From IMG/VR virus record IMGVR_UViG_2681813263_000010: a stretch of 8,174 bases of DNA. One strand, written 5' to 3'. This DNA is from a virus. Lineage: Duplodnaviria > Heunggongvirae > Uroviricota > Caudoviricetes. Positions 1 through 6,542 of this stretch are shown in pieces. The position numbers and the translations under genes are program-made. Position 1 is the first letter of the stretch. Every line of letters starts with the position of its first letter. Under the pieces are notes generated by a model that worked only from the letters and a program-made list of their open reading frames with translations, was not told where the DNA came from and made no database searches.

Positions 1-130
1 AGAGTTTTTTGCGGGCGTTTTGCCAGTCCTTACGAGCCTGTTCAGACGGGAATAACCCGTAGCCAGAGTTGTATACATCCCCACTGGCAACAATTTTTTC
101 CCGCTCTTCCTGTGTAAATACTTTTGCCAT
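1..130 (-). CDS. hypothetical protein, first 43 codons only (gene runs off the left edge)
   Basis: Minus-strand ATG at 130-128 opens a stop-free frame to position 1 (MAKVFTQEEREKIVASGDVYNSGYGLFPSEQARKDWQNARKKL...). A G-rich SD-like stretch (GGGGG) lies about 5 nt upstream, just after the TGA of the preceding gene (148-146). Not in the ORF track (partial, short). No family recognised. Confidence 0.4.
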   Translation of the reverse strand, partial: MAKVFTQEEREKIVASGDVYNSGYGLFPSEQARKDWQNARKKL

Positions 131-145
131 AAGCGCCCCCGGCAA

Positions 146-871
146 TCACTTTTCCGACACAATACGACCGGAGGAATCGACAATCTGTCGAACAATATCC
201 CGGTGCTTGTTCAGCTCCCGCAACGCGGCGCAGACACGCTCCCACTTCTGGACATGACTTTTCGCCCGACGCAGTTCGCGGTTTGCCATATGCAGCGATG
301 GTAAAACCAGGTCATCCGCTTGCGTTTCGGTGAACGATGGCAACGACTGCACAATGTCCGCCACAGTTTCTGTTTTAATTTCTTCCTGTGTTGCAGCTTC
401 CTGTACCGGTAACGCAACACCTGCTGGCTGAGGAAAGACTTTACCATCCGTTTCCGCTATGGATGCGGCTTTCGGCTCTGCCGGTAAATCAGCGCCCGGT
501 ATGCAGTACCGAAATTTACCGCCCTGATTCACGCGAATCAGACGCCCTTTGCTGATTGCCATGGCCAGCGATGAATTCGCCCGGCGGGAGGTAATCCCGA
601 ACATCAGTGCCAGCTCATCCGCCGTTTGTGGGCCATGTTGTTCAATCGCCTCAGTCAGCATTTGCGCTGTCACTTTCGGTACCGGTGACACTGGTTCACT
701 TTCACCAGCCTGAATCAGCCACCACATCGAACCCTTGTTATCCGCTTCACCACGGCGCTTCAGTTTCCACAGTTCGTTGACCGCATCTTCACGGCTGATT
801 CCAAGGCGGGACGCCACCACATGTGAAGAGGCTCTTTTCAGTGCTTTCAGTGCGTCAAATACAGTTTCCAT
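146..871 (-). CDS. phage hypothetical protein with two tandem HTH/winged-helix-like repeats (replication-module accessory gene)
   Basis: ORF-track 146..889 opens on TTG; the better start is ATG at 871-869 ([11 protein letters not shown]...), preceded by GGAGG about 8 nt upstream. 241 aa. Two internally similar segments (..[23 protein letters not shown].. and ..[28 protein letters not shown]..) suggest duplicated DNA-binding-like domains. Lies 21 bp downstream of the DnaC-like stop. Confidence 0.75.
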
Positions 872-892
872 TAAAACATCCTCCAACAAAAA

Positions 893-1513
893 TTACTTCA
901 CAACTCCCGGAAAGCTGACATTTGAACGCCAGCTATCCCAGTTAAACGTCACCCACCGACAACCGTTCATGGTCATGCGGTCCATAATCCTCTCACCAAG
1001 AAGCGTGCTCATTGCGGCATGATTCAGGTTTGTTAACATCCCGACACTGCACAGTGATGCTGTCCGGCGATCAATTATCTGGTGCAATACCACCTGCTCG
1101 TTTTTCGTCTCCCGCTGAATGCCTATTTCATCCAGGACCAGCAAATCAACCCCGCAAAGCTCCTGTAAAAATTTTTCACCGGATTTGCCGTTGTCGTAGC
1201 TGTCATGCAACACGCTCATGACATCAGACACGGTGACGATAATCACGCTGCGCCCCTTCGCCATCAGCCAGTTACCCATCGCCGCTGCAAGGTGATTTTT
1301 CCCGGTGCCGGTTTTACCGCTGAACACAAAATTCGTGCACCCGGTCATCAGTTCGTCAGCTATGGATTTGGCCTGGCTCAGCGCGTATTTTTGCCCGTCG
1401 TTCTGCACCTGATAATTCGCAAACGAGCATTTGCTGTGCAGAGGCTGGATGCCCGAACGATTCAGGATTTTTTCCACCCGCAACTGGCGATTCTGGCGGT
1501 TAATCTCCTCGCT
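893..1513 (-). CDS. DnaC-like replicative helicase loader (AAA+ ATPase), C-terminal 207 codons visible; 5' end masked
   Basis: Translation contains Walker A (FSGKTGTGKNHLAAAMG) and Walker B (DLLVLDEIG) in a DnaC/IstB-like context; stop at 895-893. Start lies in N-run 1514-1898. The ORF track fuses it with the upstream initiator through the N-run. Confidence 0.9.
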   Translation of the reverse strand, partial: SEEINRQNRQLRVEKILNRSGIQPLHSKCSFANYQVQNDGQKYALSQAKSIADELMTGCTNFVFSGKTGTGKNHLAAAMGNWLMAKGRSVIIVTVSDVMSVLHDSYDNGKSGEKFLQELCGVDLLVLDEIGIQRETKNEQVVLHQIIDRRTASLCSVGMLTNLNHAAMSTLLGERIMDRMTMNGCRWVTFNWDSWRSNVSFPGVVK

Positions 1514-1898
1514 NNNNNNNNNNNNNNNNNNNNNNNNNNNNNNNNNNNNNNNNNNNNNNNNNNNNNNNNNNNNNNNNNNNNNNNNNNNNNNNNNNNNNNN
1601 NNNNNNNNNNNNNNNNNNNNNNNNNNNNNNNNNNNNNNNNNNNNNNNNNNNNNNNNNNNNNNNNNNNNNNNNNNNNNNNNNNNNNNNNNNNNNNNNNNNN
1701 NNNNNNNNNNNNNNNNNNNNNNNNNNNNNNNNNNNNNNNNNNNNNNNNNNNNNNNNNNNNNNNNNNNNNNNNNNNNNNNNNNNNNNNNNNNNNNNNNNNN
1801 NNNNNNNNNNNNNNNNNNNNNNNNNNNNNNNNNNNNNNNNNNNNNNNNNNNNNNNNNNNNNNNNNNNNNNNNNNNNNNNNNNNNNNNNNNNNNNNNNN

Positions 1899-2773
1899 CG
1901 CCTCACACCATCCAGCATGGTCTCTGGTGGCACCCCCTCGCGCAATCTGGCCTTCCAGGCACTGAATGCGGATTTCTTCGGGTTTGCCCCGGCACGCAAC
2001 GGGTATTCCCGCCAGACCTGTTCGAACACATCCGGATAATCCACTCGTCCCACAGGCTGCCCGGTGTTTTCCGGGGCTACCCGATCGGCTTCCCGCTGAA
2101 TGGCGGAATCGGCTTCAGGCTGCTGCAGTTGGAGTGATTGCTCCGGCCTTGCGGTCATCACCTGCTGCACAGCGCCCGAATCGGCTTTCAGCGCATACGC
2201 TGAATCGGCTTCCGGTGTCGAGCCTGCTGGCTGACCAGGATTGACGGTCTGAACATCCCCTGCCTGGTTCGTGGCGTTTTTTACGCCATGGACCATAGTG
2301 TTTTGATCTTCTTTATCTGTATCTTTATCTGTATCTGTCGTGACTCGTCGTGACATGTGCGTGACATTTCGTGACGCGCCGTGACAATCGCCATTTTGTT
2401 CCCGCTTTCTTTCCCTCTCTCGCTGCGCCCTCTTGCGCTCTGCAGGAGATTTTGCGGTTTGCGAAATATTGCCGTTGTCCTCTTTAAGCACCTGGCGTTT
2501 TTCCCATCCAGTGATTAAATCACCATCAAGTACCCGCCCCTGCATCGTCTGCAAAATTGAATCAATTACCTCTTCTGTCACGTCGAGCGCACTTGCCAAA
2601 TCTTCTGTCGTGACATCAATGTGACCTCGCGTGACATTTCGTGACGCGCTCACCAGGAGGTGGATATACACTGCCATCACTGTTGCAATTGGCTGCCCTG
2701 ACACCCTGGCAATTGTTCGCCACTTAGGGTCATTTGGCATGTCATGCCATAATCTGAGCCAGGCGTTAGCCAT
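1899..2773 (-). CDS. phage replication initiator / replisome-organizer protein (O-like, YdaU-like); 3' end masked
   Basis: ATG at 2773-2771 (MANAWLRLWHDMPNDPKWRTIARVSG...) with SD-like AGAGGTGA upstream (track start GTG at 2779). About 290 codons visible before the N-run. Sits immediately upstream of the DnaC-like gene, as in lambdoid O-P / Rac ydaU-ydaV modules. Iteron repeats lie inside the coding sequence. Confidence 0.8.
2310..2337. repeat. AT-rich 12-bp tandem direct repeat (tctttatctgta x2 plus partial) flanking iterons; putative DNA-unwinding element
   Basis: tctttatctgta at 2310-2321 and 2322-2333, then tctg. Encodes the TDKDTDKD repeat in the initiator protein on the opposite strand. 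Confidence 0.75.
2339..2385. repeat. iteron cluster 1: five CGTGAC repeats phased at 10-11 bp (putative origin of replication)
   Basis: CGTGAC at 2339, 2349, 2360, 2370, 2380 (helical phasing), all inside the initiator gene, as for lambda ori inside O. Confidence 0.75.
2577..2649. repeat. iteron cluster 2 (GTCACG 2577; CGTGAC 2609, 2630, 2640; TGTGAC 2620) including a 21-bp exact copy of part of cluster 1
   Basis: gcgtgacatttcgtgacgcgc occurs exactly at 2359-2379 and 2629-2649; tcttctgtc occurs at 2571-2579 and 2601-2609. Confidence 0.7.
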
Positions 2774-2844
2774 ACTCACCTCTTCTGATACCGAATCTTT
2801 TTACTCACGAGTTGCCGGGAGCGATTCGATATGGCTATTGTCAG

Positions 2845-3090
2845 TCAATGTACTGCCACAGCATTTCCTGCCGGGCCACCACGGTTCATCTGATTGAAAC
2901 CGGCGATTGCCACTGCGACAAAATCATCAGCGTCTCTCACCAGTCGTTCATGCGTCTCCACCAGTTCCCGAAAATAAGCTGAACTGTGGCTGCGCATTCG
3001 AGCCACCAGCGGAGGTGGCATTGCCCTTTCGATCGCAGGTAACAACGCCTGAATTTTTTCAACAGCGTCAGGGGTGTCTTTATCCAGCCA
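2845..3090 (-). CDS. cII-position protein (YdaT-like by synteny), C-terminal 82 codons visible; 5' end masked
   Basis: Stop TGA at 2847-2845; frame stays open to the N-run at 3091 (...WLDKDTPDAVEKIQALLPAIERAMPPPLVARMRSHSSAYFRELVETHERLVRDADDFVAVAIAGFNQMNRGGPAGNAVAVH). Lies 71 bp upstream of the initiator start. Family assignment is positional only, not sequence recognition. Confidence 0.5.
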   Translation of the reverse strand, partial: WLDKDTPDAVEKIQALLPAIERAMPPPLVARMRSHSSAYFRELVETHERLVRDADDFVAVAIAGFNQMNRGGPAGNAVAVH

Positions 3091-5523: not shown

Positions 5524-5703
5524 AGTGAATTTTGTGATGCGGTGAATGCGGCTCAGCGCACGCGGAACAGTTAAAACAGTAAGGAAAATCCCTTATTCCG
5601 GCGTTAATTATTAACTGGTTAACGTCACCTGGAGGCACCAGGCACCGCATCAACAAAGTTCACTTCGGTGATGAAAGGAAAGAGAAAATGTTGAATGTAG
5701 CTA

Positions 5704-5732
5704 TTGAAAACCAGAACGGGTGGAATTATAGT
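5704..5732 (+). promoter_or_regulatory. candidate sigma70 promoter: TTGAAA-N17-TATAGT
   Basis: TTGAAA 5704-5709, 17-bp spacer, TATAGT 5727-5732. Lies inside the stop-free frame upstream of the Rha ATG, arguing that this stretch is leader rather than coding. Confidence 0.4.
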
Positions 5733-5794
5733 GCATCTGCACCTCATAAAACGGGGGCCGGGCGTGGAAACCCGAACGTTACTCGAGCGCATAG

Positions 5795-5815
5795 CCGCGC
5801 TGAAGCGGTTTTTTT
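5795..5815 (+). terminator. weak terminator-like hairpin plus U-run (possible attenuator or sRNA 3' end)
   Basis: CCGC (5795-5798), loop GCTGAA, GCGG (5805-5808), followed by T7 (5809-5815). Only a 4-bp stem; an alternative GCGC/GCGC pairing (5787-5790 with 5797-5800) is mutually exclusive with it. Confidence 0.35.
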
Positions 5816-5984
5816 ATGCGTAATGCACAGCTCCATTCAAATTATGGTGGGATGTGCAGGGCAGTCGCAAGACTGGCCGGGTTCTCGAGTGACCGGTATT
5901 TCCACCCCTGTACGTCTCACCACCCTTATGGTCGTGGAAAACCTCGGTGGTGAGTTAATTAACTTATCACTCGAGGATGCCATC

Positions 5985-6542
5985 ATGGCTACTATCCCTG
6001 CCCTTTCTCACCCTGACGTAACCATCGAAAATGGTCGCGCTGTCACTACGTCTATTGCGATCGCAGAGTTCTTTGGCAAGCGTCACGACAATGTGTTACG
6101 TGCCATCGCAAATACTGAATGCTCACCTGAATTTAACGCCCTCAATTTTGAGGACGTCACCTACACTGACGCCAAAGGCGAAAAACGCCCGATGTACCAA
6201 ATCACCAAAAACGGCTTCGTTTTCCTGGTGATGGGATTCACTGGCAAAAAAGCCGCTGCATTCAAAGAAGCCTACATTGCTGAGTTCGACCGCATGGAGG
6301 CCGAACTGCGCCAGAATAACACCCCACCCACTGACAAAATAATTCCAGGCGATGGCCGCACCCTGGTTGTTCACTTCGACGAACGCGGCAACATCAGATT
6401 CACCGAAACCGTTCCTGATGGCGCACGGGTCTGTACCATGGAGACTTTCCGGTTTTATCTGGAAGAACAGGGATGGACTCTTGTTAACCGGGGCGCAATT
6501 AAAAATATGACTGTAGAGCAATTACTCAAAATTCATTGTTGA
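5985..6542 (+). CDS. Rha-family phage regulatory protein (185 aa)
   Basis: SD GAGGA 5972-5976, ATG 5985, stop TGA 6540-6542. N-terminal domain ..ENGRAVTTSIAIAEFFGKRHDNVLRAI...DAKGEKRPMYQITKNGFVFLVMGFTGKKAAAFKEAYIAEFDRME matches the Rha (pRha) signature. Track ORF 5688..6542 is the same frame with an upstream extension judged non-coding. Confidence 0.8.
   Translation: MATIPALSHPDVTIENGRAVTTSIAIAEFFGKRHDNVLRAIANTECSPEFNALNFEDVTYTDAKGEKRPMYQITKNGFVFLVMGFTGKKAAAFKEAYIAEFDRMEAELRQNNTPPTDKIIPGDGRTLVVHFDERGNIRFTETVPDGARVCTMETFRFYLEEQGWTLVNRGAIKNMTVEQLLKIHC

Follow-up and report, generated by a model that had tools for sequence, protein, structure and literature searches.

A putative iteron origin inside the initiator gene of a lambdoid/Rac-like prophage, with a second array of the same core in the sequence encoding the DNA-binding domain

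The iterons of phage lambda are 19-bp units with internal dyad symmetry, and the ori-bearing part of O encodes an interdomain linker. Phage P4 has two arrays, ori and crr, of short, octamer-type iterons repeated about once per helical turn, which serve one initiator (the alpha protein), and its second array, crr, acts in cis as a replication enhancer. The ori of lambda, with iterons and an AT-rich tract, is located in the middle of O, in lambdoid and Shiga toxin (Stx) phages (PMC7466680), and oriL of phage SPP1, made of AB boxes and a DNA-unwinding element (DUE), is embedded in gene 38, whose product G38P also binds oriR with similar affinity (PMC5737612). Here we analyze a stretch of 8,174 nucleotides (nt) of Caudoviricetes DNA (IMG/VR record IMGVR_UViG_2681813263_000010), called the window in the following, which is the early region of an Escherichia coli lambdoid/Rac-like prophage and in which several segments are masked by N. 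Its replication-initiator gene lies on the minus strand and is visible, by translation, from the ATG at 2773-2771 down to 1900, its 3' end falling inside a run of N at 1514-1898. Two arrays of one short repeat lie in this gene, and we consider it probable that the region is the replication origin of the prophage, placed inside its own initiator gene, with the array in the linker-coding part and the adjoining AT-rich run forming the origin and the second array being accessory.

The window has 10 copies of the hexamer CGTGAC (GTCACG on the coding strand), where 2.92 would be expected, and none of 200 dinucleotide shuffles reached a count of 10. Nine of the 10 copies fall within 2339-2645; a single further core, at 6082, was found elsewhere in the window, the early promoter region included. 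More specifically, cluster I (2339-2385, minus strand) has the coding-strand core GTCACG in five phased copies, at 2339, 2349, 2360, 2370, and 2380, with spacings of 10, 11, 10, and 10 bp, and encodes amino acids (aa) 130-145. Cluster II (2609-2645, minus strand) contains four phased copies of GTCAC(G), at 2609, 2620 (the variant TGTGAC), 2630, and 2640, again 10-11 bp apart, and encodes aa 43-55, SASRNVTRGHIDVT. A single inverted core (2577-2582, GTCACG on the plus strand) encodes D64-V65-T66. Both clusters are thus direct repeats of at least three units at roughly helical-turn phasing (five and four, respectively); they have the same core in the same orientation and share an identical 21-bp segment, GCGTGACATTTCGTGACGCGC (2359-2379 = 2629-2649). 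The 11-bp sequence TCTGTCGTGAC is also exact at 2334 and 2604, and the offset of the exact copies is 270 bp, corresponding to 90 codons, in frame.

On one side, cluster I is directly adjoined by an AT-rich element (2300-2339, 30% GC), the run of hexamers (GATAAA/GATACA)n on the coding strand at 2300-2338, which is the GC minimum of the gene, is purine-rich on the coding strand with a strong strand asymmetry, and is the proposed DUE. Tandem Repeats Finder reported it as TCTTTATCTGTA repeated 2.2 times at 2310-2336, equivalent to 4.8 hexamers at 2310-2338. The other flank of cluster I is a polypyrimidine tract of the plus strand, polypurine on the coding strand (2386-2445), with an AT skew down to -1.0 and a GC skew of -0.52, which encodes the basic helix KRAQRERERKRE and would form the flank of the origin. 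The first-pass annotation of this DNA had listed the five phased CGTGAC copies, the 12-bp AT-rich tandem repeat beside them, and the second cluster with its exact 21-bp copy at a distance of 270 bp, and all three were recovered here.

The genes of E. coli F8704-2 and of phages Tritos and 640R1 (95-97% DNA identity) have one more 6-bp hexamer in the AT-rich run than the window (alignment A1, columns 493-498). A 302-aa homolog of E. coli (P0020), probably a defective prophage copy, lacks the segment for three linker iterons, the AT-rich run, and the following part of the linker. Just past the AT-rich run, at 2265-2295, there is a palindrome of 13 pairs, TGGTTCGTGGCGT-TTTTT-ACGCCATGGACCA, whose central stem shows a compensatory change in the homolog P0042 (TGGCGA/TCGCCA). 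The lambda ori is likewise flanked by a palindrome. As a lambda-like third element of the origin, the palindrome was rejected, as it is not conserved across the family and the hairpin scores of most genes are within the range of shuffled sequences.

Successive copies of the core use all three reading frames (GCG TCA CGA, AAT GTC ACG, GGT CAC), and therefore the repeat exists at the level of DNA and is not a peptide repeat. Because the 10-11-bp phasing spreads the copies over the three frames, peptide repetition appears only at offsets divisible by 3, and the initiator indeed has SRNVT twice and TDTDKDTDKE once. The first-pass annotation had proposed that the DNA repeats force such motifs on the protein; the motifs are present, but they are a partial side effect, most copies being in different frames. 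When synonymous codons were shuffled within the gene 500 times, with protein and codon usage held fixed, GTCACG occurred 1.5 times on average (maximum 5-6) versus eight times in the real gene, and in none of the 500 shuffles did any 6-mer reach eight, with a similar outcome for most homologs. Synonymous-site entropy was then calculated at the third positions of conserved 4-fold-degenerate codons in 15 homologs with the GTCAC core, whose first 285 nt are 65-78% identical. It amounts to 0.22 bits inside the cores of cluster II versus 1.69 bits outside them, where these sites are saturated, and the codons V47 GTC, T48 ACG, G50 GGT, H51 CAC, V54 GTC, and T55 ACG are invariant in all 15. The valine codon of the ALDVT peptide is GTG in 18 of 18 genes of the GTCAC class, which creates the inverted core, and in genes of the GTAAC class it is GTT, GTA, or GTG, in one gene each. 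In the other VT dipeptides of the GTCAC class valine is encoded by GTC in 88 of 99 cases, and in the VT dipeptides of the GTAAC class by GTA or GTT in 34 of 37. These comparisons indicate that both arrays are under purifying selection at the DNA level.

The relatives included four full-length homologs (47%-53% aa identity), 52 genomic loci from Gamma-, Beta-, and Alphaproteobacteria, and phage records, and arrays were formally scored in 53 diverged homologs for three cores (GTCAC, GAACG, and GTAAC). Phased arrays are present at both positions in 43 of the 53, and a phased linker array in 46. As the layout is kept in these 43 homologs, the two-part arrangement is a property of the family, and the idea that it is peculiar to this prophage was rejected. 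By class, 26 genes have the core GTCAC(G), 11 have GAACG(C), and six have GTAAC(G), and each of the 43 has its best-scoring core in phase at both places. The 6-mer that occurs most often is, for most genes, one that recurs every 10-11 bp and forms two clusters, one around nt 129-165 and the other around nt 355-450 of the gene, and the distance from the first copy of one array to the first of the other is mostly 248-310 bp. The number of copies ranges from two to six in the array of the N-terminal domain (N-domain) and from two to five in the linker. Insertions consist of two units (10 + 11 = 21 bp = 7 codons) and keep the reading frame; expansion by pairs of units may explain the alternating 10/11-bp spacing. 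In E. albertii (L009) and in two E. coli O157 prophages (P0022 and P0102), the N-domain array is longer by 21 bp, two units encoding TCHGVSL/R, and has six phased copies.

In nearly all homologs the 36-nt segment of lowest GC content in the gene begins no more than about 30 nt from the final linker iteron, usually just past it, and consists of the hexamers GATAAA, GATACA, or CAGATA, even in genes of 60%-68% GC. The linker array together with the AT-rich run is the most constant element of the family layout. The family is a large one, comprising 2238 clusters at 50% identity (E <= 1e-3). The first-pass annotation had proposed a bipartite origin in the initiator gene; the selection of both arrays as DNA and the phasing of one core in both positions across most of the family are in its favor, and what changes is the rank of the second array, which is probably accessory.

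The structure predicted by AlphaFold2 places the arrays on the protein. The N-domain (aa 1-95, encoded by 2489-2773 on the minus strand) is predicted with confidence and comprises helices 4-14, 16-25, and 29-45, a loop with a short strand (46-55), helices 56-63 and 67-77, and a wing (78-88); it is followed by a basic helix (110-126), a disordered linker (133-241), and a helical C-terminal domain (C-domain). In this model, the residues encoded by cluster II (aa 43-55) are the last part of helix 3 and the loop after it, and those encoded by the inverted copy (aa 64-66) form a turn ahead of the putative recognition helix. Cluster I and the AT-rich run encode aa 130-157, within a segment with a predicted local distance difference test score (pLDDT) below 50 between the two folded domains, a placement that resembles that of the lambda ori in O. 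The N-domain has a winged-helix fold of the DnaD-N/organizer type, its matches of lowest root-mean-square deviation being the DnaD N-domain. For the C-domain, a family profile matches DnaT structures (6aep, E 4e-4; 2ru8, E 5e-3), the NCBIfam DnaT model matches at E 1.5e-3, far below its cut-off and with the C-terminal part masked in the window, and relatives with the same C-domain carry PF17948.

The partner encoded downstream varies among relatives, being DnaC/IstB-like in the window and in four loci (L004, L005, L007, and L023), lambda-P-like in three (L006, L010, and L035), DnaB in one (L040), and a primase-helicase in Pseudomonas phage phi1, and the genes upstream vary as well. Only the N-domain accompanies the repeats in every one of these settings, and it is, for this reason, likely to be their reader; its binding to the repeats is predicted from this co-occurrence and from the core class shared by both arrays in 43 genes.

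We therefore propose the following scheme for the origin. The winged-helix N-domain would bind the GTCACG core, which is repeated once per helical turn, and the five copies of the linker region (2339-2385) would assemble an oligomer of the initiator. This oligomer would stand directly beside the purine-rich, AT-rich hexamer run (2300-2338), which would melt, and the DnaT-like C-domain, together with the adjacent DnaC-like ATPase, would deliver the host DnaB to the opened DNA. The second array (2609-2645 direct, 2577 inverted), about 260 bp away in the sequence encoding the DNA-binding domain, would be an accessory site for the same protein, most likely strengthening or regulating the assembly of the origin complex by looping or cooperative loading; alternatively, it may throttle or block transcription through the gene.

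Several results weigh against this reading. Three of the 53 homologs have the linker array alone, without the N-domain array, which is why the second array is probably accessory and not half of an obligatory origin, and seven have none of the three tested cores. With just three or four classes of core, independent switches would be few, and the homologs share ancestry; part of the concerted change of the two arrays may stem from gene conversion from one to the other. The phage replisome organizer N-terminal model TIGR01714 scored 15.4 bits on the initiator, below its cut-off of 49.8, and Pfam gave no match at E <= 0.01, including Phage_rep_org_N and Phage_rep_O, the name "phage replisome organizer" coming from RefSeq annotation only. 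A box search found no DnaA box in the region. The support for origin activity is, moreover, computational. Finally, in a subfamily (L062:4001-4546, from the Logan contig of SRR27947145; P0154, P0172, P0185, P0209, and P0232) the N-domain is fused directly to an HNH endonuclease (PF01844/PF14279), which takes the place of linker and C-domain; this gene keeps four phased GTCACG copies and the inverted copy in the absence of linker array and AT-rich run, and the N-domain array may thus have a role independent of the origin. The fusion could act as a nuclease directed at origins or as a homing element, and the gene that follows it starts with an alternative N-domain, MRDYSKIGPKFW. The GenBank labels "replication protein O" on phage records suggest membership of the lambda O family, but the absence of a Pfam match to Phage_rep_O leaves these labels unsupported.

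A different explanation is that both arrays bind the initiator or another phage protein for the purpose of regulation (autorepression, a roadblock in the operon, incompatibility, or copy control), with the origin located elsewhere. Purely regulatory iteron arrays are known, such as incA of P1, and the N-domain array persists in the HNH fusion genes, which lack the linker array and the AT-rich run. We nevertheless find this explanation unlikely, because almost every member of the family, GC-rich genomes included, has a strand-asymmetric AT-rich hexamer run right beside the linker array, which is the classic signature of iterons plus DUE. The core is also missing from the vicinity of the early promoter region and from the rest of the window, apart from the copy at 6082, and N-domain, repeats, and AT-rich run move as a unit between helicase and loader partners.

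It was also considered that only the linker array is functional and that cluster II is a nonfunctional echo of it, generated by intragenic duplication or gene conversion and tolerated in a loop of the protein. In favor of this are the exact 21-bp and 11-bp copies at an in-frame offset of 270 bp; the encoded loop does tolerate insertions of 7 aa, and three homologs do without cluster II. An echo is difficult to reconcile, however, with the codon position of the array, which is identical in 43 of 53 lineages from three proteobacterial classes, with synonymous sites that stay frozen where the rest of the gene has fallen to 65-78% nucleotide identity, and with the codon choice that preserves an inverted copy 33 bp away. 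Repeated conversion would not, in the absence of selection, keep the positions and phasing of the copies so constant, and we give this explanation a small chance. That selection on the protein gave rise to the repeats incidentally, through a peptide NVTRGHxDVT and a repetitive linker that happen to have similar codons, is highly improbable and was rejected, for although homologs from E. coli and from genera as distant as Bordetella and Pseudomonas keep the peptide ASRNVTRGHxDVT..ALDVT and SRNVT occurs twice, the copies are read in three different frames, fixed-protein shuffles give 1.5 copies versus 8 and match the gene in 0 of 500 cases, the third positions of the cores are invariant amid saturated 4-fold codons, and the valine codon of the DVT peptide differs with the iteron class.

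Returning to the origin proposed here, the residues that best separate the GTCAC from the GAACG class in the otherwise highly conserved winged-helix domain are, for the most part, those that the array encodes (aa 45-55 and 65-67), and residues 28-33 differ too. It is conceivable, as a speculation to which we attach little weight, that the N-domain array couples the reader to what it reads, by encoding a loop and turn that aid DNA recognition or oligomerization on the repeats. If this were true, one mutation in the array would alter the binding site and the protein segment reading it together, which would offer a self-referential route to new origin specificities and hence to replication incompatibility groups among competing prophages.

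In the window, the genes on the minus strand follow the order YdaT-family gene, initiator, DnaC/IstB-like ATPase, and DUF1627 gene. The initiator matches PHROG 3729 (replication initiation protein) with E 1e-257. The gene of the DnaC/IstB-like AAA+ helicase loader (893-1639, minus strand), immediately downstream of the initiator, was taken from the list of open reading frames (ORFs); its 5' part is masked, and its start was inferred from a 95%-identical ortholog (L003:6296-7042), which matches PF01695 IstB_IS21 at 3.7e-19 and PHROG 50, DnaC-like helicase loader, at 9e-84. Over the span 98-3090, the window is 57 nt longer than its closest match among complete genomes, NZ_CP050998.1, 6 nt fewer in the hexamer run being outweighed by about 63 extra nt somewhere between 1514 and 1898, where the sequence is masked. 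Because of this difference of about 63 nt inside the masked run, the window does not fix the 3' end of the initiator gene or the start of the DnaC-like gene. A scan for promoters and terminators showed no enrichment, with one promoter-like and two terminator-like matches, within the expectation from shuffled sequences. Farther away, Rfam models identify isrK (5739-5815, 59.6 bits) and the C4 antisense RNA (5840-5927, 76.7 bits) on the plus strand, at the 5' end of the ORF 5688-6542, an arrangement that resembles the antirepressor control module of P1/P7 type, in a lambdoid prophage.

Full-length copies of the initiator gene, 95%-97% identical in DNA and encoding 356 aa, are found in phages Tritos, Evi, and vB_EcoS-640R1 and in many E. 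coli chromosomes, and they are annotated as 356-aa genes in Tritos, vB_EcoS-640R1, and E. coli F8704-2. Of 5426 complete genomes, 4001 match some part of a 3-kb query. In Pseudomonas phage phi1 (KT887557; L060:2501-3400) we found an intact homolog of about 299 aa, starting from MSNSWLRLWHDMPNDPKW, without an annotated coding sequence, between a small hypothetical gene and the primase-helicase labeled "replication protein P". It has GTCACG arrays at 2630-2665 and 2888-2925, followed by tgtataaagatacagaagaagag.

An iteron origin inside the initiator gene is of a known kind. What appears not to have been described is the variant seen here, in which dozens of lineages keep, at synonymous sites, a second array of the same core within the sequence encoding the DNA-binding domain. 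The literature search yielded no description of the origin of this initiator family or of the repeat string, and the Eru papers on Stx-phage replication types make no mention of iterons or of this family. The arrays provide a concrete predicted origin map for a large, uncharacterized family of proteobacterial phage initiators that is present in thousands of E. coli genomes and unannotated in some phage records. They are also a natural case of overlapping codes, in which synonymous-site selection keeps a predicted protein-binding array inside a stretch that codes for a folded domain. Co-resident prophages are predicted to fall into groups of replication specificity and incompatibility according to their iteron class, GTCACG, GTAACG, or GAACGC, and the accessory array may serve as a simple system to study how a second iteron cluster modulates the firing of an origin.

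Two separated arrays of one iteron, as in the bipartite systems P4 ori/crr, SPP1 oriL/oriR, and P1 incC/incA, are present in this locus. In P4 the arrays are about 4.5 kb apart and outside the sequence encoding a DNA-binding domain, and alpha is a primase-helicase unrelated to the present initiator. With the lambda ori the locus shares the order of iterons and then AT-rich tract in the direction of transcription, an iteron number that varies among relatives (4 versus 6) and alters the length of the protein, and a helicase-loader gene immediately downstream. It differs from lambda in that the repeat is a core of 6-7 bp once per helical turn instead of a 19-bp dyad unit, in the second array of the same sites about 260 bp upstream, in the region encoding the DNA-binding domain, and in its proteins, the partner in the window being DnaC-like and not P, and the initiator giving no Phage_rep_O match. 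With SPP1 oriL it has in common an origin in the organizer gene, repeated boxes with an adjacent AT-rich DUE, and an initiator without AAA+ domain; on the other hand, both arrays lie here within 310 bp of one gene, the host of SPP1 is a Firmicute, and G38P belongs to another family, pfam09524 (PMC5737612).

A further comparison is with YdaU-YdaV of the Rac prophage of E. coli K-12, the carrier of oriJ, where the gene order is the same (YdaS/Cro-like, YdaT, initiator, and the DnaC-like YdaV) and where the C-terminal end IPPGFRG and the AT-rich hexamer run encoding NKDTDKDLK are common to both initiators. The literature search found no source that places oriJ on the sequence. The ydaU gene (L063:2120-2977) has its own repeat, similar to GATGTTCAA, in the linker (2472-2563), with copies at 2263 and 2348 in the region encoding the N-domain, and judged from this arrangement the repeat region of ydaU is a plausible location for oriJ. 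The N-domain of YdaU is however DUF1376, and the repeat sequence is different. As ydaU thus shares the layout with another N-domain and another repeat, the same design occurs with a different reader domain.

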